A stretch of 64,000 bases of DNA from an uncultured beta proteobacterium (GCA_963781285.1 CAWAFI010000025.1:36296-100295); one strand, 5' to 3'. Shown: positions 1,824 to 38,536, numbered from the stretch's first letter. Made by a program: numbers and translations. Notes: generated by a model not told the origin, from the letters alone.

Positions 1824-1829
1824 AGCACC

Positions 1830-2405: not shown

Positions 2406-2652
2406 ACGGCCGCGCTGGTCCGACGGGCAACGGATTCCAGTCAGCGTCACGCAGTATGATCGGCGAATTGCCCGCCGTCCGAAGCTCGCGATCGTGCTGT
2501 CCGGCGGCGGCGCCGCACTGCTCTCCTATCTGTTGTTCGCGCCGGGCTTCTGCAGGGCGGCGATCGATCCGGGCATTCGGGGCGCGCAGAGCAAACGCGC
2601 CGAGGTCGAGGCGCTCCTCGCGGATGAACGCTGACGCGGTGGCGCTGTCGAC

Positions 2653-4728: not shown

Positions 4729-4852
4729 GGAGTGGCGTGATCCCCGAGGCGCAGCCGGGCGGAGCCGGCGGCGGCTCCCGCCCGCGGCTGGCCTCAGAGC
4801 GCATTCTACGTCGGCGCGGCGAGGGATCTTCGCCTGCGCTATCCTCGCAAGC

Positions 4853-5710: not shown

Positions 5711-5846
5711 GATAGACAGAAGTCCCCCTGGCCCGAGCGGCGCATCCACTGTCGTATACACACGGTTGGATACGCATCGGTGCTTCTCGCACAAGGCTCG
5801 CAATAACAGCGCATTAGCCTGCGCAAGGCGCGTCATCACCTTCAGT

Positions 5847-5862
5847 TGGCACGGTTGGTGCT
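5847..5862 (+). promoter_or_regulatory. Sigma54 (RpoN) -24/-12 promoter candidate TGGCACGGTTGGTGCT
   Basis: Matches the consensus TGGCAC-N5-TTGCW at all but one position (GTGC instead of TTGC), with correct spacing. It lies 58 nt upstream of the ATG at 5920. Confidence 0.45.
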
Positions 5863-5919
5863 TTACGCTCGGTGACCCAGCGCGAAATGGCGCGGACGCA
5901 AACCGAGGAGACAGCCGTG

Positions 5920-6252
5920 ATGTATACGTACTACGACTATCTTGATCTGGCACCGGGCGCGAGCACAGCGCGAATCGATGCTGCGTACGCGCAAATCATC
6001 GAGCGTTTCGGATGCGGAACCACCGACGGGGGCCAGGACCTTTCCGGTCTCGTGCGGATGATCCACGCGGCCTACGAAGTGCTGTCGAATCCCGACGCGC
6101 GCCGTCGTTACGATGCCCAACTGGACCAGGAAGCGGCGATGGCCGACGCCGAACTCAAGGCGTCGCTCGACCAGCAGTCAAGCCGGCAACCGCGCCGAGT
6201 TCAGGACGTGCCGGTCCCGCTGCTCAACGTGCTGCGCGCACTCGCAGCCTAA
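5920..6252 (+). CDS. Small J-domain (DnaJ N-terminal domain) protein
   Basis: YYDYLDLAPGASTARIDAAYAQIIERF...AAYEVLSNPDARRRYD resembles a J-domain. A classical HPD tripeptide is not evident. GAGGAG lies 9 nt before the ATG at 5920; an alternative upstream start is at 5872/5887. Confidence 0.7.
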   Translation: MYTYYDYLDLAPGASTARIDAAYAQIIERFGCGTTDGGQDLSGLVRMIHAAYEVLSNPDARRRYDAQLDQEAAMADAELKASLDQQSSRQPRRVQDVPVPLLNVLRALAA

Positions 6253-6271
6253 TCCGCCCAGCGACAGGTTT

Positions 6272-6328
6272 GACGGTCGCCGGGATTTTCATACTGCAAA
6301 CAGCGATGCGGTCGGCGGCCGTCTTTTT
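6272..6328 (+). terminator. Candidate intrinsic terminator after the J-domain gene
   Basis: GACGGTCGCCG (6272-6282) pairs with CGGCGGCCGTC (6313-6323), with one G-U pair, and is followed by TTTTT (6324-6328). The loop is long (about 30 nt). Confidence 0.4.
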
Positions 6329-6670
6329 CTCGAAACGTCACGCGATGCGTGCGGACTCGGCCCGGTGTCGCACTGACGCGAAGTGGCGCCGTACGTCGCT
6401 CCCCGCTCCGCGTTCGACGCGGCGCGCAGCCGACACGACCGAGCGCAGGGCAGCACCGCCGGCCCGTACTCGTGCCGCACCGGCACACCGGCCGCGCTTG
6501 CGTCCGCGTCCGATGCTGCTCGTCCCACGCGGTTTCGTGCCGTTGCGCATTCATTGATCGCGCGCGATCGGGCGACGCAATATCCCGGGCAACAGGGGCG
6601 CGATGGATCGTGCCTCCGCACGCATGCACGATTCCGTGTTGTGCAACCCGCGAACTGGAGCTGCTCGCGC

Positions 6671-6686
6671 TGGCAAAGATCTTGCT
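6671..6686 (+). promoter_or_regulatory. Sigma54 (RpoN) -24/-12 promoter candidate TGGCAAAGATCTTGCT
   Basis: TGGCA-N6-TTGCT with canonical GG/GC spacing, 71 nt upstream of the GTG at 6757. Confidence 0.45.
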
Positions 6687-6756
6687 GTAGCTGTGAGCGA
6701 GGACCATCGACAACGCGCCGCACGACGGACGGAACGGCAAACGCGGAGGATTCGAC

Positions 6757-7161
6757 GTGGAAAAATGCATGAGCTGCCAGTACTACGACCGCAAGCACGC
6801 GAAGGCGACATCGGACGGCGCGCCCCAGTGGGGCCAATGCCGCCGGTCGGCGCCCATGCTGAATCCGGTGAACGCGAAGTCCTACATGATCGAAGGCATC
6901 TGGCCGACTGTTCGCGACGACGACTGGTGCGGCGAGTGGAAGCTCCTCGCGCGGCGCGTCGATTCCCGCGTTGCCGAAGCGCTCAACGCGCCGGTGATTG
7001 CAGCCCAATCGCTGCCCACCCCATCGCCGCGTGCCGGACCGCTGACGACAATAGCGCCCAACGTCGGCAACGGCGCCGCAGGCGGGAGTCGGGTGTTCGC
7101 AAGCATGGCGCCGGCAGCCGCACCCGCCGCGGCTGGCATGGCCCGACCGGGCAGCGACTGA
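6757..7161 (+). CDS. Hypothetical protein: Cys-containing N-terminal domain (about 60 aa) with a low-complexity Ala/Pro tail
   Basis: GGAGGA lies 6 nt before the GTG at 6757. The N-domain MSCQYYDRK...QWGQCRRSAPMLNP...IWPTVRDDDWCGEWK has protein-like composition with a CxxC plus 2 Cys. I cannot name the family. Confidence 0.6.
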   Translation: MEKCMSCQYYDRKHAKATSDGAPQWGQCRRSAPMLNPVNAKSYMIEGIWPTVRDDDWCGEWKLLARRVDSRVAEALNAPVIAAQSLPTPSPRAGPLTTIAPNVGNGAAGGSRVFASMAPAAAPAAAGMARPGSD

Positions 7162-7162
7162 T

Positions 7163-7450
7163 TCAGGCGCCGTCGACGGCGACCATGTTCATCCGGGCGG
7201 CGCCGGCGCGCTTCGTGCGCGCGGCGCTGTATTCCGGCGACGCATAGAAACGCCGGATTGCGTCGCCGTCGGGAAATTCGAGCACGACGATCCGGTGCGG
7301 CCGCCAATCGCCTTCCAGCACCGTGGTGACACCTCCCCGCGCGAGATAGCGGCCGCCGTAACGCTCGACGGCCGGCTTCGCGAGCGCCTTGTACTCCTCG
7401 TAACGCGCGGGATCGGTGACCTCGCAATCGACCAGGATGTAGGCGGGCAT
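7163..7450 (-). CDS. DUF1330 domain protein
   Basis: MPAYILVDCEVTDPARYEEYKALAKPAVERYGGRYLARGG...RIVVLEFPDGDAIRRFYASPEY is typical of the DUF1330 family. Confidence 0.8.
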   Translation of the reverse strand: MPAYILVDCEVTDPARYEEYKALAKPAVERYGGRYLARGGVTTVLEGDWRPHRIVVLEFPDGDAIRRFYASPEYSAARTKRAGAARMNMVAVDGA

Positions 7451-7568
7451 CTAGCGTCCTCCGTTTGAGTGCGCGGGTCACTGCGGCGGCTGTCCCGCAA
7501 GGCGAAAGCTGTTAGTCTTGCGATCTGCAGGGCCTTTTCGGCGCCAGGTTCCACTATCGTCGCGGTTC

Positions 7569-10307
7569 ATGCAAGCCGCGCGTCCTCCGCATCGCCCGAT
7601 GCCATCATCCGCTGGCCCGTTCGAAGACGCGTTCGTTTCGGGCGCGACCGTCGTCACTCCGAACCGCCGCCTCGCGCGAGCGCTCGTGGCGCGCCACGAC
7701 GAAGCGCAGCGCGCGGCAGGACTCGCGGTCTGGCCGGCGGCGAGGGCGCTGCCGTGGGACGCCTGGCTCACGACGCTGTGGCAGCAGGCGCTCGAGGCGG
7801 ACATCGTCCCGGACGGCGCGAGGTTGCGGACGCCAGTCCAGGCCGCGCACGCATGGAATCGGATCGTCGCCGCGAATGCGGCTCCACTGATCGATGCGCG
7901 CGGGGCGGCCGTGCTTGCTGCCGACGCATGGTCGATCGTCCACGCCTGGGGCGCAAGCGGCGAGAGTTGGCGGGCATGGGCGGGTAGCGGCGATGTCGAC
8001 GACGATGCGTCGGCATTCGCGCGCTGGGCCGCGCGCTACGCCGCCGCGCTCGCCGCCAGCAGCAGCATCGATCCGGCGCAGCTTCCCGACCGGCTAGCCG
8101 CGTGGGCGACGCGTATTGCTGCTTTGCGCGGAGCGAGATTCGTGCTCGCCGGATTCATCGAGTTTTCGCCCCAGCAGGAGCGCCTGATCGCGGCCCTCGT
8201 TGCGGCGGGTGCGCACATCGCACGGGAAGACACGCTGCCTGCGAAACCAGGGCTAGCGCGCCTCGCATGCGGGGCGACACCGAGGGACGAGCTCGCGCTT
8301 GCACTGGCTTGGGCGCGCGATCGCGCCCTTGCGCGGCCGAGCGCGACGATCGGCATCGTCGTCGAGGACCTCGCGGGGCGCCGGGACGAAGTGCAGGCGC
8401 TCGCGGACGACATCGTGTGTCCGGCGCTGCAATGGCCAGCCGAGCTGGAGACGGCGCGCCCGTACAACCTGTCGCTCGGCACGGCATTGTCCGATGTTCC
8501 ACTGGTTGCGGCGGCGCTCGATCTCATCGGCTGGGCCGACGCACCGCTGCCAGTCGGGCGTGCCGCCGCGCTGCTGCGCTCGCCTTACGTGGCAGTCGGA
8601 CCCGATGCATGGATGCTGCGCGCACGACTCGAAGCCGATTGGCTGAAGCAGGGCCGCCGCAGCATTTCGATGCGCGGCGCGCTGGCCGCCCTGCGCGATG
8701 CCGATCAGCCGCTCGCGCAGCGATGGGCCGACGCGCGCGACCGCCACCGCGTGCCTGCGCACGGAACGCCGCGCGCGTTCGCCGAAGCATGGCGCGAATG
8801 GCTCGCGGCGCTGGGCTGGCCTGGCAGCCGCGTGCCGGGAAGCGCCGAGTATCAGGCGCGCGCCGTTTGGGACGACGCGCTGGCGACGTTCGCGACGTTG
8901 GGTTCGGTCGAGGCCGAGCTCGCGCGCGTCGACGCGCTTGCCGCGCTGCGCGCACAACTGACTGCGGCCATCTTCCAGCCGGAATCTCCGCCGGCGCCAA
9001 TCCAGATTCTCGGCGTGCTGGAGGCGGCAGGACTTCCGTTCGATGCGTTGTGGGTCGCCGGGCTTGCGGCGGAACGCTGGCCGGCGGCGCCGCAGCCCAA
9101 CCCCTTGCTCCCCATCGTTTGGCAACGTGAACGCAACGTGCCGCGCGCGTCGGCGGCGCGGGAGCTCGCGTACGCGCAGGCGCTGACCGCGCAGTTCGCG
9201 CGCGCGGCGCCGCAGGTCGTGTTCTCGTATGCACGCAGCGCGGACGATCATTCGCGTTCACCATCGTGGCTGCTGCCAGCGGCGCCGCCGCTCGCGAGCG
9301 ACGAAGTCGCGATTCCCGTCTCGACAGCGCGTGTGCAATTCGCGCTCGCAGCGTCGCGCGAGAGGATGGTCGACGACCGTGCGCCGCAGCTGCCGGCCGG
9401 AAGTCCCATGCGAGGCGGCGCGAGCCTGATCGAGGCGCAGGGCGATTGTCCGTTCAAGGCCGCCGCGACCTACCGACTCGCGGCCGAGACATGGCCGGTC
9501 CCGGTCGACGGCCTGTCGGCGCAGGAGCGCGGGACGCTCGCGCACGCCGCGCTGACGGCATTCTGGTGCGACGTGCGAACCCAGGCCGCGCTGGTAGAGC
9601 TCGCGCCCGCGACACTCGCGGCGAAAATCGCCGCCGCGGTCGAGGCGGCCATCGTCGCAATTCCTGCCGCGCGCTGGCGCAACCTGCTCCCGGTGGTAGC
9701 GGCCGGCGAGTCGGCCCGGTTGGCAACGCTCGTCGGGTCGTGGCTTCAGGCGCAGGAGCGCGACCGGCCGCCGTTCTCAGTGCTGGGTACCGAAATGACG
9801 CTGCCGCTGACGCTAGGCGGATTGTCGCTGCAATTACGGCTGGATCGCCTCGACGCGCTCGCGGACGGAGGCACCGCGATCATCGATTACAAGACCGGGC
9901 GAACGAAACCGCCGGAGGCCTGGTTCGAGCCGCGGCCGCAGGCGCCGCAGCTCGGCCTCTACGCGCTCGCGCGGCGCGCGGCGGCGCCGGCGGAGCATCT
10001 TCGCGCCGTGGCCTACGCCCAGATTCGTCCGGGCGAGTTCAAGGTGCACGGGATTGCAGCGGACAACAACGCCTGGCCCGCGCTGAAGCTTCCGTCCAGT
10101 CTCAGGAAGGTGGCGCTCGCCGATTGGTCCGCCGTCGAGGCGCGCTGGGCGGCCTCGCTCGGCGCGCTAGCCGCCGACATTGCCGCGGGGGCCGCTGCCG
10201 TGGCGCCGCGGGATGCGCGGAAGACCTGCGCGCACTGTGGCCTGCAGCCATTCTGCCGCATCGGCGCGCTCGCGATCGCGGACCGCGAACGGAACGAGGA
10301 TGAGTGA
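7569..10307 (+). CDS. addB: AddB-type PD-(D/E)XK nuclease subunit of an AddAB helicase-nuclease
   Basis: About 900 aa immediately upstream of, and overlapping, a UvrD-like helicase-nuclease. C-terminal nuclease motif IIDYKTGR. Cys cluster C...CAHCGLQPFC (Fe-S staple pattern). The N-terminus VVTPNRRLARAL lacks a Walker A. The start is uncertain (7569 or 7599). Confidence 0.75.
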   Translation: MQAARPPHRPMPSSAGPFEDAFVSGATVVTPNRRLARALVARHDEAQRAAGLAVWPAARALPWDAWLTTLWQQALEADIVPDGARLRTPVQAAHAWNRIVAANAAPLIDARGAAVLAADAWSIVHAWGASGESWRAWAGSGDVDDDASAFARWAARYAAALAASSSIDPAQLPDRLAAWATRIAALRGARFVLAGFIEFSPQQERLIAALVAAGAHIAREDTLPAKPGLARLACGATPRDELALALAWARDRALARPSATIGIVVEDLAGRRDEVQALADDIVCPALQWPAELETARPYNLSLGTALSDVPLVAAALDLIGWADAPLPVGRAAALLRSPYVAVGPDAWMLRARLEADWLKQGRRSISMRGALAALRDADQPLAQRWADARDRHRVPAHGTPRAFAEAWREWLAALGWPGSRVPGSAEYQARAVWDDALATFATLGSVEAELARVDALAALRAQLTAAIFQPESPPAPIQILGVLEAAGLPFDALWVAGLAAERWPAAPQPNPLLPIVWQRERNVPRASAARELAYAQALTAQFARAAPQVVFSYARSADDHSRSPSWLLPAAPPLASDEVAIPVSTARVQFALAASRERMVDDRAPQLPAGSPMRGGASLIEAQGDCPFKAAATYRLAAETWPVPVDGLSAQERGTLAHAALTAFWCDVRTQAALVELAPATLAAKIAAAVEAAIVAIPAARWRNLLPVVAAGESARLATLVGSWLQAQERDRPPFSVLGTEMTLPLTLGGLSLQLRLDRLDALADGGTAIIDYKTGRTKPPEAWFEPRPQAPQLGLYALARRAAAPAEHLRAVAYAQIRPGEFKVHGIAADNNAWPALKLPSSLRKVALADWSAVEARWAASLGALAADIAAGAAAVAPRDARKTCAHCGLQPFCRIGALAIADRERNEDE

Positions 10308-13300
10308 CGGACCGATGGAGTCAGCCGTGCGCGCGGCCGATGCCGCGGCGCGCGAGTGCGCTCTCGACGTCGAGCGTTCGTTCCTCGTCCAGGCACCAGC
10401 AGGATCCGGCAAGACCGAGCTCCTGATCCGGCGCTTCCTCGCGCTGCTCGCGCGCGTCGACCGGCCCGAGCGTATCGTCGCGATGACGTTCACGCGCAAG
10501 GCGGCGGGGGAGATGCGCGAGCGGATCGTCCGCGCGCTGCGCGAAGCCGAAGCGGCAAAGCCCGTGACGTCGCCACACGAAGGGCGGGTACGCGATCTGG
10601 CGTGCGCCGCGCTCGCCCAGGACAAGCGGCACGGTTGGAACCTGATCGCCCATCCGGCGCGGCTCGCCGTGCAGACGATCGATGCGTTGAGCGCAGGGCT
10701 CGCGCGGCAGGCGCCGCTGGCCACGAGGTTGGGCGCCGCGCCGCGCTTCGAGGAGCGGGCGCAAGCGCTCTATGTCGATGCGGTGCGCGACACACTGGCC
10801 GGCGCCTCCGCGGCCGATCCGGGATGGCGGACCCTGCTCGCCCATTGGGCCAACGACGCCGGCGCGACCGTGACGCTCCTGGCCGGGATGCTCGGCAAGC
10901 GGGACCAATGGCTGCGCGCGCTTTCCCACGATGACCGCGCCCGATTTCGCGCGACGCTGGAGGCGACGCTTGCCGAGGAGGTCCGCAGCGGGCTCGAGGC
11001 AATAGCCGCGGCAATCCCGCCGTCGTTCGCGGCGGCGCTGGCACCGCTGGAACGCCATGCCGCCCTGCATCTCGATGGCAGCACGCGCGCTTCGCATCTC
11101 GCGTCCGAACTTCTCGCGTGTGCCGATGCGGGCGGGCGGCCGCCGGCAACGGTTGCGGCGCTGAATCAATGGCGCGCACTGGCGTCGTGGCTGCTCGTCG
11201 CGAACCATGCGCGATTCCGCGCGAAGGTCGACAAGAATGACGGCTTTCCGTCGAAAGGCACGGGGAAGGAAGCGGTCAAGCGGCAGCGAATGAATACGGA
11301 CATGAAGGAGCTGCTGGGCACTCTCGAAGCCGTGCCAGGGCTCGCGGAAGCGCTCGACGCGGCACGCCGTCTGCCGACAGCGCAGTATATGGACGAGACG
11401 TGGGCGATCGTGTCCGCGCTGCTCGATGTGCTGCCGCGGCTCGCCGCGCAGCTGATGCTCACGTTCGGTGGCGCCGGCGCAATCGACTTCACGCAGGGGA
11501 CGATGGCCGCATTGTCTGCGCTCGGCAGCGAGGACGCGCCGACCGATCTGCTGCTGAGGCTCGATCTGTGGATCGAGCATCTGCTGATCGACGAATTCCA
11601 GGACACGTCGTTCGTCCAGCTCGCCCTGATCCGGCGCCTGACGGCCGGCTGGCAACCGGGCGACGGCCGTACGTTGTTCGCCGTCGGCGATCCGATGCAG
11701 TCGATCTACCGCTTCCGCGATGCCGAAGTGCGGATCTTCGTCGAAGCGCAGGCCAAGCGGCAAGTCGGCGACGTGCCGGTCGAGAACCTCGTCCTCGCGC
11801 GCAATTTCCGTTCGCACGCCGGGCTCGTGAATTGGGTGAACGGCCTGTTTCCAGGTGTCCTTGGCAGCCACAGCGACCCGTGGCGCGGCGTGGTCGCGTT
11901 CTCGCCGGCGATCGCAGACGCGCCGGCGCTTCCGGGACGCGCGGTGACGATCGACCTGCTGCCGGACGATGCAACGGAGGCAGAATGTGTCGTCGACCAC
12001 GTCAGGTCCGCGCTGGAGCACGAAGCGCAGAGCATTGCCGTGCTCGTGCGTGCGCGCACGCACCTCGATTGCCTGCTGCCGGCGTTGCGCACGGCCGGGA
12101 TCGATTACGCCGCGGTCGAGCTCGATGCGCTCGCCGAGCGTCAGGCAGTGCTCGATCTCGTTTCGTTGACGCACGCGCTCACCCAGCCAGCCGACCGGCT
12201 CGCGTGGCTCGCGGTGCTGCGTGCGCCGTGGTGTGGACTCGCCTTGCCCGACCTTTTCGCCGTCGCGGCGGCTGCCGATGCGCATCCCTTGAGGTCGATC
12301 GCCGCCACCGTGGAAGAGGACGACGCCATTGCGGGCCTGTCCGAGGATGGCCGGGCGCGTCTTGAGCGAATCGCGCGGTACCTGCGTCCGGCGCTTGCCG
12401 CGCGCGGGCGCGCATCGCTCGCGCGCCGGGTGCGCGGCGCGTGGCTCGCATTGGGCGGCGCGGCGACGCTGGACGAGGCGCTCGACATCGATGCGGCCGA
12501 GCGCTATTTCGCGTTGTTGGCCGAGCACGAAGTCGCCGGCGACATTCCGGATTGGGCGGTCTTTGTTGCTGCCCTCGACGAACTCCGCGCCGAACCCGGT
12601 GCCGCAATCGCCGCGCGCGTGCAGGTGATGACGTTGCATCGCGCGAAAGGGCTCGAGTTCGATACGGTGATCATGCCGGGGCTCGCGCGCGCGTCGCGCC
12701 GCGGCGAACCCGAAGCGCTGCGCTGGCGGCTTCGCCCGCAGGGCCTGCTGCTGGCACCCGCGCGGGCCCGAGGCGGTGATGTCGATCCCGTCCACGCGTA
12801 TCTCGGGTACCTCGCCGACGGCGAGGAGCGCGCCGAGCTCGCGCGCCTGCTCTACGTTGGCTGCACGCGCGCCAAGTCGCGCCTGCATCTGACGGCGAAG
12901 CTCGCGAGCGAGGCTATCGCTAACGGCCCGCTCGCGTGGAAGCGGCCGGCCCCGGGATCGTCGCTGGCACGCCTCTGGGATTCGCTCGGCAATTCAGTCG
13001 CGTCGCCAGTGGCGGTCGCAGCGGCGTCGCCGGCGGTGCCGGCATCATCACGCCTGCTGGCGCGATTTCCCACCCGTTGGATGACTCCCCTTCCCGAGGC
13101 GGGGGTCCCGGTCGCGTCGCTTCCGGAAGCGCGACAGGATACGCCGCCGTTCGACTGGGCGCGCGAGACCGCAAGGCACATCGGCGTCGTCGTCCACCGC
13201 CTGTTCGCGCAGATTGCGCGCGAGGGCCCTGCCCATTGGAACGCAACGCGGCTTGCCACAACCGGCCAGCGCATCCGCATGGAGCTTGCGGGTGAGGGCG

Positions 13301-13692
13301 TCGACGCCGCGGATCTCGACGCCGCGGTGGTGCAGGTGGAGGCGGCAGTGCGCAACGTGCTGGGCGATGCGCGCGGCCGCTGGGTTTGCGCGACGGAGCA
13401 CGCGGAAGCAGCGAGCGAATGGGCGCTGGCGGGCGTCGACGGCGCAGCGATCGTGCACGTGGTCCTCGACCGCACGTTCGTCGCCGACGGCGTGCGCTGG
13501 ATCATCGACTTCAAGACTGGCAGTCACGAAGGCGCCGACGTCGAGGCTTTCCTCGCTCGCGAGGTCGAGCGCTACCGGGGCCAGCTCGAGCGCTATGGAC
13601 GGCTCGTCGCCGCTCTCGACGCGCGGCCGATCCGGCTCGCCCTCTACTACCCGCTGTTGCGTGCGTGGCGCGAATGGCCCTTTCAGGGTTGA
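10300..13692 (+). CDS. addA: AddA-type UvrD/Rep-family helicase with C-terminal PD-(D/E)XK nuclease
   Basis: Walker A APAGSGKTE. Helicase motifs IDEFQDTS, FAVGDPMQSIYRFR and VMTLHRAKGLEFD. C-terminal nuclease motif WIIDFKTG. The ATG at 10300 overlaps the addB stop (ATGAGTGA). Confidence 0.85.
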   Translation: MSDGPMESAVRAADAAARECALDVERSFLVQAPAGSGKTELLIRRFLALLARVDRPERIVAMTFTRKAAGEMRERIVRALREAEAAKPVTSPHEGRVRDLACAALAQDKRHGWNLIAHPARLAVQTIDALSAGLARQAPLATRLGAAPRFEERAQALYVDAVRDTLAGASAADPGWRTLLAHWANDAGATVTLLAGMLGKRDQWLRALSHDDRARFRATLEATLAEEVRSGLEAIAAAIPPSFAAALAPLERHAALHLDGSTRASHLASELLACADAGGRPPATVAALNQWRALASWLLVANHARFRAKVDKNDGFPSKGTGKEAVKRQRMNTDMKELLGTLEAVPGLAEALDAARRLPTAQYMDETWAIVSALLDVLPRLAAQLMLTFGGAGAIDFTQGTMAALSALGSEDAPTDLLLRLDLWIEHLLIDEFQDTSFVQLALIRRLTAGWQPGDGRTLFAVGDPMQSIYRFRDAEVRIFVEAQAKRQVGDVPVENLVLARNFRSHAGLVNWVNGLFPGVLGSHSDPWRGVVAFSPAIADAPALPGRAVTIDLLPDDATEAECVVDHVRSALEHEAQSIAVLVRARTHLDCLLPALRTAGIDYAAVELDALAERQAVLDLVSLTHALTQPADRLAWLAVLRAPWCGLALPDLFAVAAAADAHPLRSIAATVEEDDAIAGLSEDGRARLERIARYLRPALAARGRASLARRVRGAWLALGGAATLDEALDIDAAERYFALLAEHEVAGDIPDWAVFVAALDELRAEPGAAIAARVQVMTLHRAKGLEFDTVIMPGLARASRRGEPEALRWRLRPQGLLLAPARARGGDVDPVHAYLGYLADGEERAELARLLYVGCTRAKSRLHLTAKLASEAIANGPLAWKRPAPGSSLARLWDSLGNSVASPVAVAAASPAVPASSRLLARFPTRWMTPLPEAGVPVASLPEARQDTPPFDWARETARHIGVVVHRLFAQIAREGPAHWNATRLATTGQRIRMELAGEGVDAADLDAAVVQVEAAVRNVLGDARGRWVCATEHAEAASEWALAGVDGAAIVHVVLDRTFVADGVRWIIDFKTGSHEGADVEAFLAREVERYRGQLERYGRLVAALDARPIRLALYYPLLRAWREWPFQG

Positions 13693-29429: not shown

Positions 29430-30388
29430 CAGAAGTAGCCCTCGCGCTTGCGCAGCTCCATCGACGCGTCGTGAGTCTGGTCGTCGAGGCGGGTCGCGCC
29501 GCGTTCGGTGATCGTGGTGGCCGCCGTCTCGGCGATGATCGCGGCAATCGTCATAGCGTCCGAGGCGACCGGCGCCGTGCATGTGATGTCGCCGACCGTG
29601 CGGAAGCGCACTGAAACCCGTTCGACGATTTCGCCGTCGCGCGGCGGCGTCAGTTCCGTCACCGGGACGAGCGCCGTGCCGCGGCGGATCACCTGGCGCG
29701 TGTGCGCGAGGTAGATCGACGGGACCTCCAGCCGTTCGCGCTCGATGTACTGCCACACATCGAGTTCGGTCCAGTTGCTGATCGGAAACACGCGCACATT
29801 CTCGCCCGGATGCGTGCGCGCGTTGTAGAGATTCCACAGCTCGGGCCGCTGGTTCTTCGGGTCCCATTGGCCGAACGCGTCGCGGAACGAGAAGATCCGC
29901 TCCTTGGCACGCGATTTTTCCTCGTCGCGGCGCGCCCCGCCGATGCAGGCGTCGAAGCCGAACTCGGCGATCGCATCGAGCAGGGTCACCGACTGGTGCG
30001 GGTTGCGGCTCTCGTGGCGATGCTTCAACACCACGCGCCCCGACGCGATGGAGTCCTCGACCGAGCGCACGATCAGCCGTTCGCCAAGTTCGGCCGCGCG
30101 ATGGTCGCGAAATGCGATGACTTCGGGAAAATTGTGGCCGGTATCGATGTGCAGAAGCGGGAACGGGAAGCCACCCGGACGGAACGCCTTTTCGGCGAGC
30201 CGTAGCAGCACCAGCGAATCCTTGCCGCCCGAGAAGAGGAGGGCGGGATTGCGGCACTGGCCCGCGACCTCGCGCAGGATATGGATCGCTTCGGACTCCA
30301 GCCAGCCGAGGTGGTCGGCATCGGCTGGGGCCACCGCATCGGTTGCGATTGCCACGCGGGTCCGGCCGACGATGACGGTCGCCGTCAT
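29429..30388 (-). CDS. cysD: Sulfate adenylyltransferase subunit 2
   Basis: LLFSGGKDSLVLLRLA...LLHIDTGHNFPE...RVFPISNWTELDVWQYI. The ATG at 30388 overlaps the upstream stop (ATGA). Confidence 0.92.
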   Translation of the reverse strand: MTATVIVGRTRVAIATDAVAPADADHLGWLESEAIHILREVAGQCRNPALLFSGGKDSLVLLRLAEKAFRPGGFPFPLLHIDTGHNFPEVIAFRDHRAAELGERLIVRSVEDSIASGRVVLKHRHESRNPHQSVTLLDAIAEFGFDACIGGARRDEEKSRAKERIFSFRDAFGQWDPKNQRPELWNLYNARTHPGENVRVFPISNWTELDVWQYIERERLEVPSIYLAHTRQVIRRGTALVPVTELTPPRDGEIVERVSVRFRTVGDITCTAPVASDAMTIAAIIAETAATTITERGATRLDDQTHDASMELRKREGYF

Positions 30389-31635
30389 GAGGTCACGGTC
30401 TCCGGGGGCCGCGACACGACGTGTGCCACCGCAATCGTCGAGTGGGGATGAAGCCCGCATTCCTTGTGCTCCGCCCGTTCCCACCACCAGCGGCCGGCGC
30501 GGACGTCCTCGCCCGGTTGCACTGCACGGGTGCATGGCGCGCAGCCGATCGACGGATAGCCGCGATCGTGCAACGCGTTGTACGGAACGTCGTGCGCGCG
30601 GAGGTAGTTCCAGACGTCGTCGTGGCTCCAGTCCGCGAGCGGGTTGAATTTCGGCAGCCCGTGCGCCGCGTCGAATTCCTCGACCGCGATCGCCTCCCGC
30701 GTCACCGACTGCGACCTGCGCAGCCCGGTGATCCAGGCGCCTTTGGCGACGAGTGCGCGCTGCAACGGCTCGGTCTTGCGGACTGCGCAGCAACCCTTGC
30801 GCAATTCGACGCTGTCGTAGAACGCGTTGACGCCGTGCTCGCGGATGAAGGTCTGCAAGAGCCGCGTGTCCGGCGTGTAGACGTCGACTGGAAGTCCGTA
30901 GTGCTTGCGGGTGCGATCGATCAGCACGTGGGTTTCGTCGGGCAGCCGCCCCGTGTCGAGCGTGAAGATCCGGATGGGCAGCGCATGCTTCGCGATCAGG
31001 TCGATCACGACCATGTCCTCGGCGCCGAAGCTCGACGCAAAGACCGCCGGCGCATGGCGTGCAGCAATCGCGCGCAGCAGTCCGACGGCCTCTGCGACCC
31101 GGCGGTCGAGCGCGCTGCCAGCCGACGCGGTGCTTGCCGGTTCGGCGCGGCGCCGGAACCACGGCTGTGGCGTGCGCGAGGTCGCGGCATAGACGCCCGA
31201 AAAGTCGTCGAGTCCGTCGAGCGCTTCGTTTGCGTCGCGATCGGCGCGGATCGCGAACGCGTTGAAGCCGCATTGGGCGAGCGCGAACAACTGGTCGCGC
31301 AACACATCGCCGATCGCGCGCAGCTCGCCCTTGAAGCCGTGACGGTCACGCAGCAGTCGCGCGATCGAGTAACCGCGGCCGTCGGTGAACTGCGGGAAAT
31401 CCACGGCCACGAGCGGCAGCGTCGGGAGATCAGCGGCGAGCTCCGCCGGGTCGTCCGCCGGAGCGAGCCAGACACCGGCCTCACCGCGGGCGAGGAGGGC
31501 GGCACGCTCGGCACGCCACAGCGGCAGCGAAACGATGACCGGCGCGCCGGCGGGCACGTCGGCGAGCGTGGCTACGTCGCGCAGCAGCGTCCAGCGATCG
31601 GCGACAACCGCACGGTCCCTAATGAGTTGCGGCAT
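30385..31635 (-). CDS. cysH: In-frame fusion of a DUF934 domain (N-terminal) with APS/PAPS reductase CysH (C-terminal)
   Basis: MPQLIRDRAVV...VDFPQFTDGRGYSIARLLR...GDVLRDQLFALAQCGFNAF is DUF934. A roughly 25-aa linker follows, then SSFGAEDMVVIDL...GCCAVRKTEPL...GCAPCT...KECGLH is CysH. There is no stop codon between the two parts. Confidence 0.8.
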   Translation of the reverse strand: MPQLIRDRAVVADRWTLLRDVATLADVPAGAPVIVSLPLWRAERAALLARGEAGVWLAPADDPAELAADLPTLPLVAVDFPQFTDGRGYSIARLLRDRHGFKGELRAIGDVLRDQLFALAQCGFNAFAIRADRDANEALDGLDDFSGVYAATSRTPQPWFRRRAEPASTASAGSALDRRVAEAVGLLRAIAARHAPAVFASSFGAEDMVVIDLIAKHALPIRIFTLDTGRLPDETHVLIDRTRKHYGLPVDVYTPDTRLLQTFIREHGVNAFYDSVELRKGCCAVRKTEPLQRALVAKGAWITGLRRSQSVTREAIAVEEFDAAHGLPKFNPLADWSHDDVWNYLRAHDVPYNALHDRGYPSIGCAPCTRAVQPGEDVRAGRWWWERAEHKECGLHPHSTIAVAHVVSRPPETVTS

Positions 31636-33277
31636 AGACGCGTTCCTTGAAGGGTTCGAGACCGATCCGACGCACGGTATCGATGAAGCGTTCGTCCTGT
31701 TCCCGTCGTTCGACGTAGACATCGACGAGCCGCACGATCACGTCGGGCACTTCGGCCGCTGCGAACGACGGCCCGATGACCTTGCCGAGCGACGCATCGT
31801 TGCCCTGCGCGCCGCCGAGCGAAACCTGGTACCACTCGTCGCCGTTCTTGTCGACGCCGAGAATGCCGATGTGACCGACATGGTGATGGCCGCACGCGTT
31901 CATGCAGCCGGACATGTTGAGCTCGAGGTCGCCCAGGTCGTACAGGTAATCGAGATCGTCGAACCGACGCTGGATCGCCTCCGCGATCGGGATCGATTTC
32001 GCGTTGGCCAGCGAACAGAAATCGCCGCCGGGACAGCAGACGATGTCGGTCAGCAGGCCGATGTTCGGTGTTGCGAGCCCGAGCGCCTTCAGCTTCGTCC
32101 ACAGCGCGTGGAGGTCGGACTGGAGCACGTCGGAGAAGACCAGGTTCTGCTCGTGCGTGACCCGGATTTCGCCGAAGCTGTAGCGATCGGCCAGCGTGGC
32201 GATCGCGTCCATCTCGCTCGCCGTCACGTCGCCGGGAGGCGTACCGGTGCGCTTGAGCGACAGCGTGACAATCGCGTAGCCGCGACGCTTGTGCGCGCGG
32301 ACATTGCGGTCCGCCCAGCGGGAAAACGGGCGGCTGTCGGCGCGCGCGGCCCGGTAGGCCACGTTATCGCGCGCGAACTCGCGGTAGGGCGGATCGGCAA
32401 AATGCCCGGCGAGCCGCGTGATTTCCTCGCGTGGCACGGTGCCGGGCCCGCCGCGCAGGCGCTCCCATTCGGCTTCGACCTGGCGCGTGAATTCGGCCGG
32501 CGTCAACTCCTTGACGAGGATCTTGATCCGCGCCTTGTACTTGTTGTCGCGGCGGCCGTAGCGGTTGTAGACGCGCAGGATGGCGTCGAAGTAGTTGAGG
32601 AGCTCGGGCGCGGGGAGGAAGGCGCGGATCACGTGGCCGATCATCGGCGTGCGTCCCTGACCGCCGCCGACAACCACCCGGAAACCGGATTTGCCGGCTT
32701 CGTTCCGCACCGCCTGGGCACCGATGTCGTGGACCAGGATCGCGGCGCGATCCGTCGTCGCCCCGGTCACGGCGATCTTGAACTTGCGCGGCAGGAACGC
32801 GAATTCCGGGTGCAGCGTCGACCACTGCCGAATCAGCTCGGACCACGGGCGCGGGTCGATGATTTCATCGGCCGCGACCCCGGCCAATGGGTCGCAGGTG
32901 ATATTGCGCACGCAGTTGCCGGACGTCTGGATTGCGTGCATGCCGACCTGCGCGAGTTCGGCCAGGATCTCCGGTGTGTCCTCGAGCCGCGGCCAGTTGA
33001 GCTGGAGGTTCTGGCGGGTCGTGAAGTGCCCGTAACCTCGGTCATACTTGCGGGCGATGTGCGCAAGCGTGCGGAGCTGGGTCGTAGAGATGAGGCCGTA
33101 GGGTATTGCGATGCGCAGCATCGGCGCGTACTTCTGCATGTACAAGCCGTTTTGCAGGCGCAGCGGCCGGAATTCGTCCTCGGACAGCTCCCCCGCGAGA
33201 AAGCGCCGCGTCTGGTCGCGGAATTGCACCACGCGCTGGGCGACCACGTTACTGTCAAAATCGTCGTACCTGTACAT
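31619..33277 (-). CDS. cysI: Sulfite reductase hemoprotein (nitrite/sulfite reductase 4Fe-4S/siroheme family)
   Basis: Duplicated NIR_SIR ferredoxin-like halves and the siroheme/Fe-S Cys cluster (TSGNCVRN...; CPGGDFC...SGCMNACG). Confidence 0.9.
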   Translation of the reverse strand: MYRYDDFDSNVVAQRVVQFRDQTRRFLAGELSEDEFRPLRLQNGLYMQKYAPMLRIAIPYGLISTTQLRTLAHIARKYDRGYGHFTTRQNLQLNWPRLEDTPEILAELAQVGMHAIQTSGNCVRNITCDPLAGVAADEIIDPRPWSELIRQWSTLHPEFAFLPRKFKIAVTGATTDRAAILVHDIGAQAVRNEAGKSGFRVVVGGGQGRTPMIGHVIRAFLPAPELLNYFDAILRVYNRYGRRDNKYKARIKILVKELTPAEFTRQVEAEWERLRGGPGTVPREEITRLAGHFADPPYREFARDNVAYRAARADSRPFSRWADRNVRAHKRRGYAIVTLSLKRTGTPPGDVTASEMDAIATLADRYSFGEIRVTHEQNLVFSDVLQSDLHALWTKLKALGLATPNIGLLTDIVCCPGGDFCSLANAKSIPIAEAIQRRFDDLDYLYDLGDLELNMSGCMNACGHHHVGHIGILGVDKNGDEWYQVSLGGAQGNDASLGKVIGPSFAAAEVPDVIVRLVDVYVERREQDERFIDTVRRIGLEPFKERVYAATH

Positions 33278-33844: not shown

Positions 33845-36550
33845 TCAGCACACGTACTGGCACTGCGAAGCCGGGGTGCGCGTGTCCATGTTGCGGCCGC
33901 GGTTCATGTGGTCGTCGATCTCGGCCGCGCAGCCGAGCATGCGCGGGTAGAGGAAGATCGTGAACGCGGCGGTTTCCAGCGCCTCGCTGGTGAAGGCACC
34001 GCTGCGATACGGCCGCCACAGCATCTTGAGCAGCAGCGCGGCGATTACCGCGTCTATGTTCACGCAGTAGACGGTACGCGAGATACCGGTGTCGAACAGC
34101 GCCTGCACCAGCGCAAGGTAGAAGGCGTGAAAGACATTGTATTCATTGCGCTTCTGGAACACTTCGCGCACGTAAACCTCGCGCGGATCGAAATTCACCG
34201 GCTTGTCCTTGAACACCGGATGGTTGACACCTGGAATCTTCTGGATGTCGACGCTGCCGACGAGTTTCCGGTCCGATTTGTAGCGGGCGTAGCGCTCGCA
34301 GTAACGCAACGCCAGCGCCTTCAGATCGATGCCGTGCGCCGGATCGGCCGGATCCGCGAGCCCGCTCTCGCGGAACTGGTCGATGAGAAATGCGATGCCC
34401 TCGTAACCGTTGCCACCGTGCGTGTAGCCCGAATGGGTGAGGAAGCCGGTGAGCGCCTTGTTGAGCTGGACGCGTTCCGGGCTTTCGGGGCCGTCGGCGG
34501 ACACGGCGCCTTTGGCCCCCTGCGCGGATATGGCCCCCGGTCCGTTGGTCAGCAGCAGGCCGACGAGCGACTGGAACGCGAAGAGGTTCGCAGGCTCCGG
34601 CTCGTCCCCGAAGAGCGCGACGTAGGCGACCTCGGTCAGCGAGCGCTGGCCGAGGATTTGCTTGGTCGGCAGACCGCAAAAGCGATCCTTTTCGTGCCGC
34701 GCGGCCGCCACCGACGCGCCGATCAGCGTGCCGAAGAGAAGCATCCACCAGGGCCCGCTCTCCGCCGTCAGCCGCGAGATGCGTTTGCGCATCAGGGGGC
34801 CCCAGGCGAGCGTGGTCGCGATCGCCGCCTGCACCGCGTCGGCCGTCGGATGACCGTCGAGGCTCGCAAGATAACGAACGAACACCGATTTCGCGCCGCG
34901 CGCCCGCAGCGCATCGAGCATTGCCTCGGCCGCAGGGTCGCGGGCGCTGCCGACGAAGAGGGCGCGCGCCGTGGCGTCGGTTGCAATCGAACGCACGTCG
35001 AACGATTCGTCGAGCGCGCTCGCAAGGCCCGCTGCGGCAAAGCGGTCGATCAGCGTCCGCGCAGCAAGCCGGGCGTGCTCCGCGCGCCGTGGTCCGACGA
35101 TACTCGCCGCGGCGGCAAGCACGCTGTTCGGAGCATTCCCCGCGGCGCGCGCCGCCTCGGCCGCCGCAAGCGCCGGATCGCCGTGGAGGTTGAGGGCGGC
35201 GCCGATCGCGACGTTGATCAATTTGCGGTCGTTCTCGCCGCCCAGCTCATGGAAGAGCGCGAGATTGACGTTGGCCTCCAGCGGTTGCTGCGCCGCCTCG
35301 AGCATCGACACGCCATACAGGCTCGACACCTGGGTCTTCGCGTCCATCTGTGAGGCGCCGGAGGCGTCCTTCATCGGCTGGCGCGGGAACTGGGCGCCGA
35401 TCTGGCGCGCGAGCTGCGCGATCTGTTCGTTGTACGGCGCCAAGGCTTCGACCACGGGCACATCGATCTCGGGTGGTACCGCGAACCCCATGTTGGCGCC
35501 GAACCACGGCTTGAGTTCCATCGTGCCCTCGGGCGCGAAGTCGGGCCGGCTCGCGTTCTCGCGCATGACGGCCGTCAGCGCAAGTGGGATGTGCGCGATG
35601 TTGGTGACGACCGCGCCCTTGGCCGAGAAGATCGGCCGCTCCGGCGTGAAGAGGCCATCGACACCAAACTTCTCCATGAACCAGCGCTCCTTCGCCTGGG
35701 CGTCGTCGTTGCCGCCCGCCATCGCACCGGCGTGGCCGACAGCACGGGTCAACTTGGACTTCCAGCGGCCGACCACGCAGGCAACGACCGGCTTGGTGAA
35801 GTGGGCGTCGAGCTCGTAATAGCCGCCGGGCTCCGCGTAGAGGACCGCCGCCTTGCTGCGCGCATCGTTCGCCAGCGCGAAGGCAAACTCGGGTGCGGCG
35901 TAGTGGATGTAGACGTCCTTGCCGCTGGAGATCAGTGTCGTCGTCCCCCATCCGGCCATGCGCAGGTAGGTCGCGATGGTCGTCGTGAAGTTGCCGGAGT
36001 TGGAGAAGATTGCAATCGAGCCCTTCTTCAGCGCCTCGGCCGGTGCGTCGCCGCCGAGCGCACCGCCGATGCGGACCTGGTTCCAGGCATCCGCGACGCC
36101 CAGGCAGTTCGCGCCGAAGATGTCGATGCCGTTGGCCTGGCCCATCGCGCGGATCTCGCGCGCGTCGTGCACGGCAATCTTTTCGGTGACGATGAAGATC
36201 TTGCGCAGGTCGGAGTTGAGGCGGATCAGTTCGGCGACGCCGTCGCGCGCGCCGGAGGGGGGCAGGTAGACCACGCCGCAGTTGAAGCGGTGGCCATTTG
36301 CGAGGCCTTCGCGCACGTTGTTGAAAACGGGGATGTCGCCGATCGTGGTCTCGAGGACCTGCCCCCGGCGGCCGGGTGACGTTCCGAACACGACGTTGCC
36401 GCCGGAGTACGCGTGTCCGGTCGGCGTGACTTCGCTCGATTCACCGCCCAGGATGTTGAGCACACACACGCGGTCCTCGCGCGTCGCGATCTGCGACAGC
36501 GAGCTCACGCCCACGTAATACTTGAATTCGCCTACGCCTTGCTTGTGCAT
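33845..36550 (-). CDS. ATP-citrate lyase-like large subunit: succinyl-CoA-synthetase-alpha-like CoA-ligase domain, about 260-aa Ala-rich insert, and citrate-synthase-like (citryl-CoA lyase) domain
   Basis: CoA-binding N-terminus, phosphohistidine loop AVGHAGAMAGG (His at about residue 273), and a C-terminal citrate-synthase-type segment (HSGYTHGGNG...IPGVNHPVFKD...AAEIDDH). 901 aa. Confidence 0.75.
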   Translation of the reverse strand: MHKQGVGEFKYYVGVSSLSQIATREDRVCVLNILGGESSEVTPTGHAYSGGNVVFGTSPGRRGQVLETTIGDIPVFNNVREGLANGHRFNCGVVYLPPSGARDGVAELIRLNSDLRKIFIVTEKIAVHDAREIRAMGQANGIDIFGANCLGVADAWNQVRIGGALGGDAPAEALKKGSIAIFSNSGNFTTTIATYLRMAGWGTTTLISSGKDVYIHYAAPEFAFALANDARSKAAVLYAEPGGYYELDAHFTKPVVACVVGRWKSKLTRAVGHAGAMAGGNDDAQAKERWFMEKFGVDGLFTPERPIFSAKGAVVTNIAHIPLALTAVMRENASRPDFAPEGTMELKPWFGANMGFAVPPEIDVPVVEALAPYNEQIAQLARQIGAQFPRQPMKDASGASQMDAKTQVSSLYGVSMLEAAQQPLEANVNLALFHELGGENDRKLINVAIGAALNLHGDPALAAAEAARAAGNAPNSVLAAAASIVGPRRAEHARLAARTLIDRFAAAGLASALDESFDVRSIATDATARALFVGSARDPAAEAMLDALRARGAKSVFVRYLASLDGHPTADAVQAAIATTLAWGPLMRKRISRLTAESGPWWMLLFGTLIGASVAAARHEKDRFCGLPTKQILGQRSLTEVAYVALFGDEPEPANLFAFQSLVGLLLTNGPGAISAQGAKGAVSADGPESPERVQLNKALTGFLTHSGYTHGGNGYEGIAFLIDQFRESGLADPADPAHGIDLKALALRYCERYARYKSDRKLVGSVDIQKIPGVNHPVFKDKPVNFDPREVYVREVFQKRNEYNVFHAFYLALVQALFDTGISRTVYCVNIDAVIAALLLKMLWRPYRSGAFTSEALETAAFTIFLYPRMLGCAAEIDDHMNRGRNMDTRTPASQCQYVC

Positions 36551-36603
36551 CCTGGCCCTCGCTTCTTTCCAAGTAGGTGCGGTAACGGGCGACCCGTTGC
36601 CCG

Positions 36604-37890
36604 TTACGCCGCCCTCGGCATTCCCGCGTCCAGCTTGCTTGCGAGCGCTTCGCGTCCAGCGGCCTTCATCCAGGTGTTCACCCGCTTCGCATAGTTGACG
36701 ACCTCGCTCATGTCCGAGTCGAAACCGAAGATGCGGTACGGCACGCCCAGCGCTTCACAGGTGTCGCGCATCACACCCATGCCGCGAATCAGGTTCGGTC
36801 CCCCGCGACCGACCACGACGTAGAGCGGACTCTTCCCGTGCTGACTGAAGTGTTCGCGCAGCGCGTCGGCCATCGCCCGGAAGGTCTCGAAGATGTCGGT
36901 ATTGTTCGACTTGCCGCCAATGATGAACAGCACATTCGCCTGCTTCAGCCAGTGCTTGAAACAGATGCGCGCAACGTCCTTCATCTTCGCGTAGGGCGGG
37001 TTGCCGCCGAAGTCCGACGAGATGATGGCGTCGTCGCCCAGCATCTCCGTGACCAGAGAGTTGGCCCCACCGCCGAACGTGGGCGCGAGGATCGTGCCCG
37101 TGGCATTGATCACGTACACGTCGCTCTGGCCCTGATAGGTACGCAGCTGGTTGATCTCCTGCTCGAAGTCGGAGTAGTCGACGGCGAAGATCTCGGCCGG
37201 CAGATCGAGCCGTCGCCAGCGCGGATCGTCGCGGTCGAAACCGCATTTGAAGTCGCAGGCAACCGGGGTGAGCCGACCCTTTGCATCCGGCGCCATGCGA
37301 ATCGGATTGAGCTCGAGGGTAGTCATCCCGAAATCGTGAAAGAGCTCCCACAGCTTGGGCAGATTCTGCACCAGCGGCGAGATGATCTCTTTCGGCGCGT
37401 CGAGCTCGGACAGCGCGTTCGCGACCACGAAGGCCTTGAGTCCCGTCAGCGCCTCGAAGGGGACCTGGGCCACGAGTCGCTTGTCGAGCTCCTCGATGTC
37501 CACCCCGCCGTGGTGCGTGAGCGTCATCGTTGGCGCCCGGTAGTGCGTGGAGTCGGAGATCGAGAAGTAAACCTCGTGCCGCGCCGGCACCGCGCCCTCG
37601 AACGTCACGCCGTTCGCTTTCGCGGCGGTGTTGCCGACGCGGTGCTCGGCGAAGTAGAGCCGCTCCTTCTCCCTGAGCGCGCTTTTCAGGTCGGCCGCGC
37701 GGCCGAGCAGCCCGGCCTTGCCTTTCTTCCCGACGCCACCCTTGAACAGGGGCTTGACGAACACCGAGCCGTGGCGGTCGATGAGCGCCTTGATCTGCTC
37801 CTCGCTCGCATCCGGGCCCAGTATCTCGGACGTCGGAAAGTCGACGAACTTGAGCATCTTGGCGCCATACAGCATTCCGGTGACTTGCAT
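36604..37890 (-). CDS. ATP-citrate lyase-like small subunit (succinyl-CoA-synthetase-beta-like ATP-grasp)
   Basis: ATP-grasp-like N-half (VFVKPLFKGGVGKKGKAGLLG), LELNPI, and a ligase-CoA-like C-half (APTFGGGANSLV...GGNPP). Start at MQVTGMLYGAK (ATG 37890). Confidence 0.75.
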   Translation of the reverse strand: MQVTGMLYGAKMLKFVDFPTSEILGPDASEEQIKALIDRHGSVFVKPLFKGGVGKKGKAGLLGRAADLKSALREKERLYFAEHRVGNTAAKANGVTFEGAVPARHEVYFSISDSTHYRAPTMTLTHHGGVDIEELDKRLVAQVPFEALTGLKAFVVANALSELDAPKEIISPLVQNLPKLWELFHDFGMTTLELNPIRMAPDAKGRLTPVACDFKCGFDRDDPRWRRLDLPAEIFAVDYSDFEQEINQLRTYQGQSDVYVINATGTILAPTFGGGANSLVTEMLGDDAIISSDFGGNPPYAKMKDVARICFKHWLKQANVLFIIGGKSNNTDIFETFRAMADALREHFSQHGKSPLYVVVGRGGPNLIRGMGVMRDTCEALGVPYRIFGFDSDMSEVVNYAKRVNTWMKAAGREALASKLDAGMPRAA

Positions 37891-38536
37891 GGTGGATTCC
37901 CGGTTATTGAAGCTCGCGTGGCTCCCTGGCACCGGCCACGCTCGTTCCCGCACCAGCGGGAATTCGGCTTCGCCGGCCCGGAAGCGTTTGGGTCCACGCC
38001 TTGGCGAGGACAACGACTTGACGTGCTTCTTCCATTCGAGGCCGAGTGGGTCGGGATGCGCGCCGGCGCCGCGGGCGGGAAGGCCAGCCCTTCTTCCGCC
38101 GGGCGCGCGGTAGAGGCGGGGCCCGGTTACCCTGAGCACCGCGAGGACCCGCAACGCAATCAACCTGTCACTCGGACGAACAGTATGCCCAACTCGCCGT
38201 CGGAGATCGAGAGAGCGCCACAAAGGTCCTGGCTCTTCGCGCTGCGCGCGATGAAGCGGCTGCCGAGGTGCGACGTCAACATGCGGTGCGGCTCTTGCGC
38301 GGCGCATGACCGGTGCCGTCGATCCCGAGCAGTGCCGGGCAGGGCAGGCTTTCACCCGCCGGGCCCTAACGGACGGAATTTGACATAATACAAATTATGC
38401 GACACACGGATGTGACGCGATGCAGGGTTATCCTGGCTCGCGCAGGATAACTTTGCTCGCTAGATCGCCTTGGCCTCAACGGTCATCGTGCGACGCGGAC
38501 AAAGCGACCCCGCGCCAACCCGGTACGGACCGGCGC

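Follow-up and report, generated by a model that had tools for sequence, protein, structure and literature searches.

A predicted type II ATP-citrate lyase with two lyase-like modules in an uncultured beta proteobacterium, and its relatives in aerobic heterotrophs

We analysed a 64,000-nucleotide stretch of DNA from an uncultured beta proteobacterium (GCA_963781285.1 CAWAFI010000025.1:36296-100295; the whole stretch is hereafter called the window), in which two adjacent genes at positions 33845 to 37890 very probably encode a member of the postulated type II ATP-citrate lyase (ACL) family, as judged by sequence comparison. An initial annotation of the window, made from the sequence alone, had described a 428-aa protein followed after 53 bp by a 901-aa protein. 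The open reading frame (ORF) call reproduced this layout and added the strand, which had not been given: both genes lie on the minus strand. The features of the pair are as follows, with residue numbers referring to the subunit in question.

33845-36550, minus strand: large-subunit gene, 901 aa (ORF call and translation)
35639-36550, minus strand: CcsB/SucD-like CoA-binding and CoA-ligase domain, aa 1-304, with the predicted phospho-histidine His273 (codon 35732-35734) and catalytic Glu240
35369-35638, minus strand: linker, aa 305-394, predicted to be mostly non-helical, with the motifs PDFxPxG..LKPWF, PYxEQI and RQxMxxxSGAS
34709-35368, minus strand: psi-CCL, a putative degenerate duplicate of a citryl-CoA lyase (CCL), aa 395-614 (hhalign, profile and fold searches)
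33848-34708, minus strand: predicted catalytic CCL/citrate-synthase-like module, aa 615-901 (CCL profile match, invariant residues)
36551-36603, minus strand: intercistronic spacer, 53 bp, holding the Shine-Dalgarno sequence GAGGG, read from the sequence, ahead of the large-subunit ATG
36604-37890, minus strand: small-subunit gene, 428 aa, beginning MQVTGMLYG at the internal ATG 37890 of the ORF 36604-38355; CcsA/AclB-like, with one half for nucleotide binding (ATP-grasp) and one for citrate (Pfam, PDB profile match)

The start chosen for the small subunit gives a length of 428 aa, in agreement with the median of about 430 aa for the small-subunit cluster of related loci. The gap between the two genes has a median of 12 bp in 65 related loci, against 53 bp in the window, and such sizes are consistent with an operon. 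All three motifs quoted in the initial annotation were recovered in the large-subunit translation, namely AVGHAGAMAGG at aa 270-280 (containing His273), IPGVNHPVFKD at aa 772-782 and AAEIDDH at aa 875-881.

The small subunit matched the Pfam families ATP-grasp_2 (3.9e-11) and Citrate_bind (1.8e-17, 63.9 bits against a cut-off of 26.8), and its best match in the PDB was the large subunit of the Hydrogenobacter citryl-CoA synthetase (CCS; 6hxq_B, 1.9e-28). Furthermore, Asn346, Thr348 and Arg379, the citrate-binding residues of human ACL (ACLY), align with the segments GGKSNNTD and GRGGPN of the small subunit. In the large subunit, CoA_binding and Succ_CoA_lig were matched over aa 50-281, while Citrate_synt appeared at aa 762-884 below threshold (18.6 bits against a cut-off of 27). 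The CoA-ligase part found its best PDB match in the CCS small subunit 6hxq_A, both as a single sequence (1.2e-32) and as a family profile (1.3e-48), and Foldseek aligned the large-subunit model with the same chain (TMt 0.76); the alpha chains of succinyl-CoA synthetase (SCS) were also good matches, ranked below CCS. His273 stands in the phospho-histidine loop GHAGA, and Glu240 within EPGG. The NCBIfam equivalog models for SucD and SucC scored 116.3 bits on the large subunit (cut-off 336) and 49.7 bits on the small one (cut-off 370), so that the cut-offs were missed three- to seven-fold, and neither protein is an ordinary SucCD subunit by these models. The placement of the pair relative to CCS, type I ACL and SCS is given here by PDB and NCBIfam score rankings.

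We also examined the C-terminal module of the large subunit, using a family alignment of 42 sequences (A1) and a C-terminal sub-profile taken from it (A2). The only significant PDB match of A2 was the citryl-CoA lyase 6hxp_A (1.1e-4), in whose alignment the AHGG motif of CCL corresponds to His711 (HGGNG), the segment GH...DPR to His777 (NHPVF) through Arg790 (DPRE), and NVD to Asp833 (NID). In the numbering of pig citrate synthase these residues are equivalent to His274 (His711), His320 (His777), Arg329 (Arg790) and Asp375 (Asp833), and Arg870 and Arg891 likewise to Arg401 and Arg421. The NCBIfam citryl-CoA lyase models matched weakly (aa 614-892, 20-25 bits against cut-offs of 193-261). Across 43 sequences of 40-83% identity, E240, H273, N669, H711, H777, R790, D833, R870 and R891 are all invariant. 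The citrate-synthase-like C-terminal domain of the initial annotation is thus borne out by the 6hxp profile match together with the invariant His/His/Asp set, and the catalytic His and Asp residues are in place.

Between these two functional parts lie about 310-330 residues without any Pfam match, which the initial annotation had described as an Ala-rich helical insert of about 260 aa. The Ala-richness (23.6% in aa 395-614) and the helical nature stood, whereas the length was underestimated and the picture of a plain spacer gave way to that of a second lyase module: the insert is predicted, from profile and model comparisons, to be a linker of about 90 aa followed by a catalytically dead duplicate of the lyase module. 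AlphaFold2 run on A1 gave a mean predicted local distance difference test (pLDDT) score of 83, with aa ~400-660 helical at scores above 90, a short beta-hairpin at aa 400-411 reminiscent of the start of citrate-synthase-like domains, and a linker (aa 305-394) of little secondary structure at pLDDT 60-70, in which D337, F338, G342, K347, W349 and P372 are among the conserved columns. An hhalign comparison of aa 300-614 with aa 615-901, made with the combined profile, gave a probability of 97.7% over 198 columns (E=1.9e-12), whereas the E values of eight controls, among them the reversed C-terminus, the N-terminal domain and five C-termini with shuffled columns, were 0.25-0.84. The same test on the more distant clade of the family (clade 2 below) gave 6e-11, and that on the window's own clade (clade 1) was not significant (E=0.0093), because the clade-1 sequences are too similar to one another. 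The insert profile alone matched a single entry across the whole PDB, again the citryl-CoA lyase 6hxp_A (2.8e-4).

A fold search with the full-length model was swamped by the N-terminal SCS-like domain and carried no information on the insert, and we therefore modelled the insert alone. The top 38 PDB matches of this model (pLDDT 88.9) were all CCL or ACL lyase modules, from Chlorobium, Methanothrix and human (probability 1.0, TM scores about 0.5), with citrate and 2-methylcitrate synthases in the next rank; the predicted structure of the insert is thus CCL-like. According to the hhalign comparison, psi-CCL keeps no counterpart of His711 or Asn669, and the entire segment from His777 to Arg790 is deleted. 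Between clades psi-CCL also diverges faster: its identity is 21-26%, and that of the catalytic module 37-42%. One Planctomycetota protein of 547 aa (P0207) carries the family linker, a truncated CoA-ligase part and a single lyase module, which passes the Citrate_synt threshold (48 bits) and aligns to both modules of the window protein, which fits a duplication within the family. This protein may be a pre-duplication form or a gene fragment.

The connection to the literature was made through a metagenome contig. The term 'type II ACL' goes back to Hugler & Sievert 2011, who, according to PMC3522073, PMC6783814 and 10.1101/363564, used it for the Riftia/Tevnia symbiont and for Magnetococcus (Mmc1_3638/3639). 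The primers acl2F1 and acl2R1, which were designed on the symbiont type II ACL gene (PMC3522073), both match contig L084 (Ga0256843_1000118) exactly, inside a 905-aa ORF. This contig carries at 570-13501, all in one direction, a 423-aa ORF (aclB), the 905-aa ORF (aclA), a monomeric isocitrate dehydrogenase, aconitase, PntAB and malate dehydrogenase, the gene set of the tubeworm-symbiont type II ACL cluster of 10.1101/363564. Over their full lengths the window proteins are 57% (large subunit, over 905 aa) and 70% (small subunit) identical to those of L084. The link to the published type II ACL runs through this primer-matched contig. The initial annotation had offered a type II ACL, a CCS/CCL fusion or a related lyase as readings of the pair. 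The first two amount to the same thing, and both are supported: CCS is nearest for both subunits, CCL for the C-terminus, and L084 is collinear. From these comparisons we consider it probable that the pair cleaves citrate to acetyl-CoA and oxaloacetate.

The family proved to be widespread. An initial search gave over 3000 database proteins, more distant relatives included. The proteins carry database labels such as 'CoA-binding protein' or 'succinyl-CoA synthetase alpha subunit', and no NCBIfam model reaches its cut-off; when the region comprising insert and lyase was clustered at 50% identity, it fell into very few full-length clusters. Clade 1 is very tight (72-83% identity) and large, with matches in at least 438 GTDB species. 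Aerobic or denitrifying heterotrophs make up most of its named hosts, which are Paraburkholderia, Caballeronia, Cupriavidus, Variovorax, Polaromonas, Thauera, Azoarcus, Aromatoleum, Methylobacterium, Skermanella, Rhodoplanes and metagenome-assembled genomes of Casimicrobiaceae and Usitatibacteraceae. Our literature searches found no description of this heterotroph clade. Clade 2 is 40-46% identical and shares the architecture of about 905 aa; its members include Geobacter metallireducens, Desulfosarcina, Desulfobacter, Nitrospinota, KSB1, Spirochaetia and Melioribacteraceae. Of these lineages, G. metallireducens has been modelled with an ACL (PMC3998878), and for N. gracilis only a very divergent ACL has been reported (PMC3578206). 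The symbiont sequence of L084 is the sister of the window's clade in the set of 43 sequences. A placement of the symbiont enzyme in the Geobacter-type clade, guessed from the primer motif NGFEAIA, was ruled out by this full-length comparison.

To characterize the gene context, we assembled 80 loci of the window's clade; with the window itself counted, the two subunit genes are neighbours in 75 of 81 sequences. In 32 of the 80 loci a carrier gene follows immediately downstream on the same strand, at a distance of at most 181 bp, and these carriers belong to four families: the MFS TcuC/CitA type (20), the 2HCT citrate:cation symporters (5), CitMHS (4) and DASS (3). Such an exchange of carrier families at one operon position is a classical hint that their common substrate, citrate, would also be that of the enzyme, and it suggests a catabolic role. 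More broadly, a tricarboxylate-type carrier or a TctC receptor lies within 4 kb in 37 of the 57 loci that have at least 3 kb on both flanks. Other recurrent neighbours are DctA, LysR regulators, a sensor kinase and the NADP-malic enzyme MaeB, and pyruvate dehydrogenase genes lie nearby in two Caballeronia sordidicola loci, with the same cluster order in Caballeronia udeis. The initial annotation had noted an absence of other tricarboxylic acid (TCA) cycle genes near the pair; likewise, neither tblastn probes nor Pfam scans covering some of the ORFs found an isocitrate dehydrogenase, aconitase, malate dehydrogenase, phosphoenolpyruvate (PEP) carboxylase or fumarate reductase in the window, 2-oxoglutarate:ferredoxin oxidoreductase (OGOR) being outside the probe set. 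The same probes, again without OGOR, gave a single weak aconitase-family match among the 80 clade-1 loci. The Geobacter metallireducens-type locus (L081, 3355-14893) has a divergent PEP carboxylase on one side of the pair and, on the other, a CBS-domain protein and a three-gene set resembling fumarate reductase or thiol:fumarate reductase (FAD_binding_2, Fer2_3, CCG).

A different neighbour was seen in four Thauera/Azoarcus loci (L038, L040, L041 and L051): a 136-aa hotdog-fold acyl-CoA thioesterase (4HBT) takes the place of the transporter, its gene coming next after the large-subunit gene in three loci (at 82-180 bp) and lying within 4 kb in the fourth. This thioesterase could hydrolyse acetyl-CoA or citryl-CoA.

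By homology to CCS, SCS and ACLY, the reaction would proceed in two stages. The ATP-grasp half of the small subunit would use ATP to phosphorylate His273 on the mobile loop of the large subunit, and the phospho-His loop would then move to a site between the citrate-binding half of the small subunit and the CoA-binding domain of the large subunit, where citryl-phosphate and then (3S)-citryl-CoA would be formed. The citryl-CoA would be split in the C-terminal module by retro-Claisen chemistry involving Asp833, His777 and His711, with the oxaloacetate moiety held by Arg790, Arg870 and Arg891. The 220-aa psi-CCL is probably a structural partner, in the role that the second protomer plays in citrate synthase and ACLY. 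In physiological terms, the context of the relatives suggests that imported citrate would most likely be fed into the acetyl-CoA and C4 pools. The initial annotation had left substrate and direction unknown; these are no longer fully open, as the citrate-binding residues and the citrate transporters of the relatives point to the cleavage of imported citrate. That the enzyme of the heterotroph clade has a catabolic role, cleaving imported citrate rather than fixing CO2, has in our judgement about an even chance of being correct. The more specific proposal of a dedicated catabolic enzyme for imported citrate in aerobic Proteobacteria, whose lyase part is an intramolecular pseudo-dimer of a dead and a live module, falls slightly short of even and is put forward tentatively.

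Among the type II ACLs of tubeworm symbionts, Thioflavicoccus and Magnetococcus, gene order and sizes are shared (423 and 905 aa against 428 and 901 aa), and the symbiont enzyme of L084 is collinear over its full length, linker and psi-CCL included, with all catalytic residues identical. The window's clade differs in being a separate, tight sister of the symbiont sequence found in aerobic heterotrophs, and in being linked to citrate importers and not to aconitase, isocitrate dehydrogenase, malate dehydrogenase, OGOR and fumarate reductase. The Hydrogenobacter thermophilus CcsAB and Ccl proteins (6hxq, 6hxp) are the nearest solved relatives of all three functional parts and probably share the same two-step chemistry; however, the CcsB-like chain of the window is fused to the lyase, there are two lyase modules of which one is degenerate, and the His of the CCL 'DH' motif is Asn. 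The arrangement of a separate ccl gene with a CcsB of about 350 aa is thus absent from the window pair. Type I ACL (Chlorobium AclBA, 6hxj; human ACLY, 6hxh/6qfb) likewise combines an ATP-grasp and citrate-binding part, a phospho-His CoA-ligase and a C-terminal CCL module, and human ACLY shares the citrate-binding Asn/Thr/Arg with the small subunit, but type I is far more distant in sequence (6hxj_B, 1.9e-8, against 1e-32 for CCS). In addition, type I AclA has about 600 aa and one lyase module, whereas the window protein has 901 aa and two CCL-like modules, with Citrate_synt below threshold. The type II enzyme also keeps a His at the position of citrate synthase His274 (His711, in HGGNG), a position at which ACLY is not known to have one. 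The CitDEF citrate lyase resembles the heterotroph-clade enzyme in its probable niche, the cleavage of imported citrate beside a citrate carrier gene, but its proteins and mechanism are unrelated: it works by exchange of an acetyl group bound to an acyl carrier protein and yields acetate and oxaloacetate with no use of ATP or CoA.

Several observations weigh against citrate cleavage as the function of the pair. We found no enzyme assay on a purified type II protein in the literature searched. The lyase module has diverged strongly (Citrate_synt 18.6 bits, below the cut-off of 27; CCL E values of about 1e-4), and where the CCL 'DH' motif has its His, it carries Asn669. At the window's own locus no transporter or TCA neighbour was found, and in none of the 80 related loci does the pair lie between cbiX and radA; the role in the window's organism is therefore argued from the relatives. 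Furthermore, an ACL beside citrate synthase makes a futile cycle unless regulated, and transporters of the TcuC and TctC types also carry other tricarboxylates. The last point leads to the possibility of the same chemistry on another substrate, such as 2-methylcitrate, isocitrate, citramalate, malate, hydroxycitrate or a tricarboxylate imported by a TcuC-type carrier. The commonest neighbour indeed matches the NCBIfam model of the tricarballylate/proton symporter TcuC, and the divergent module has Asn669 at a substrate-binding His position. However, citrate is the sole substrate common to the four unrelated downstream transporter families, the small subunit retains the Asn/Thr/Arg set that binds citrate in ACLY, no variation is seen in the citrate-synthase triad or in the Arg residues for oxaloacetate, and the closest characterized context, that of the tubeworm symbionts, is a citrate-cleaving cluster of the reductive TCA cycle. 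We thus regard a substrate other than citrate as unlikely.

The direction of the reaction and its pathway were weighed in the same manner. In vivo the enzyme could instead work in the opposite direction, as a citrate synthase that yields ATP, converting acetyl-CoA, oxaloacetate, ADP and Pi to citrate, ATP and CoA; the ACL reaction is close to equilibrium, such a reaction was reportedly described in older literature for acetate-oxidising Desulfobacter, and the genomes of Desulfobacter and Desulfosarcina hold clade-2 members. The hosts of the window's clade, however, are mostly aerobes, which would gain little from one substrate-level ATP, and the operon linkage to citrate importers speaks for citrate consumption, which makes synthesis in vivo quite improbable. 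CO2 fixation through a reductive TCA cycle, in which the pair would cleave the citrate as in Magnetococcus, Nitrospina and the tubeworm symbionts, would fit the autotrophs in which the family was first defined and the reductive TCA cluster of the nearest named relative (L084), but the probed TCA genes were not found in the window and left only the one weak aconitase-family match in the 80 clade-1 loci, the hosts include Paraburkholderia, Caballeronia, Variovorax and Methylobacterium, and the neighbours are importers, malic enzyme and regulators. We consider this reading of the window pair very improbable, and, by analogy among the clade-1 hosts, it is unlikely that the enzyme drives a reductive TCA cycle in this clade. 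A paralogue of ordinary SucCD carrying a fused domain of no catalytic role would account for the database names and for the good PDB matches to SCS alpha chains; against it stand the SucD and SucC scores (116 of 336 and 50 of 370 bits), the rank of CCS above SCS for both subunits, the ACL Citrate_bind domain of the small subunit and the lyase catalytic residues invariant across 40-83% identity, and we find it hardly credible.

The pair is embedded in a housekeeping stretch, cysNDHI, cbiX, radA, hldE, ugd, then rpsA, aroA, pheA and gyrA, and its flanking genes encode CbiX (PF01903, 1.7e-24) and a RadA-type protein, in agreement with the position between cbiX and radA first reported. The base composition of the pair is the same as that of the surrounding DNA, and the GC3 (G+C at third codon positions) of both genes, 0.82-0.86, is like that of the adjoining genes. 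Scans of 33-39 kb for Rfam families, promoters and terminators gave nothing above chance. The intergenic region between radA and the small subunit (37891-38536) is unusually long, at 646 bp, and G+C-rich with one AT-rich patch at about 38380-38420; no similar sequence was seen at any of the 80 related loci. At 36583-36606 (minus strand) the stop codon of the small subunit is overlapped by a stem of about 8 bp (TAACGGGC ... GCCCGTTA), whose loop is 8 nt long and which is followed by no T-run; it may be an intercistronic mRNA element or a chance occurrence. Elsewhere in the window, a single 445-aa ORF at 30385-31722 (minus strand) joins DUF934 (aa 83-189) in frame to a domain of the PAPS-reductase/CysH type (aa 226-400), and looks like a DUF934-CysH fusion within a cysI-cysH-cysD-cysN cluster. 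The ORF at 2653-5181 (minus strand) encodes a molybdopterin oxidoreductase of 842 aa, in which Fe4S4, Molybdopterin and Molydop_binding domains were matched; it may be, for instance, an assimilatory nitrate reductase or a formate dehydrogenase.

Type II ACL has been invoked as the key enzyme of the reductive TCA cycle of Magnetococcus, Nitrospina-type nitrite oxidisers and tubeworm symbionts, and we found no biochemical or structural characterization of it. Within the searchable literature, the spread of the family in aerobic heterotrophs, its operon link to citrate carriers and the degenerate second lyase module appear to be new. The annotation gap is part of the matter, as the proteins bear generic database names and escape every NCBIfam model at cut-off. 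The family is directly testable, as relatives of 57-83% identity are plentiful in aerobes that grow readily and are open to genetic work, among them Paraburkholderia, Caballeronia, Cupriavidus and Variovorax. The gene pair alone does not indicate CO2 fixation, which matters for metagenome surveys that use ACL as a marker of the reductive TCA cycle. The duplicated, half-dead lyase module would add a new step to the evolutionary scheme that links citrate synthase, CCL and ACL. If the proposed role is true, these bacteria would split imported citrate directly to acetyl-CoA and oxaloacetate, a route outside the textbook picture of bacterial citrate use.

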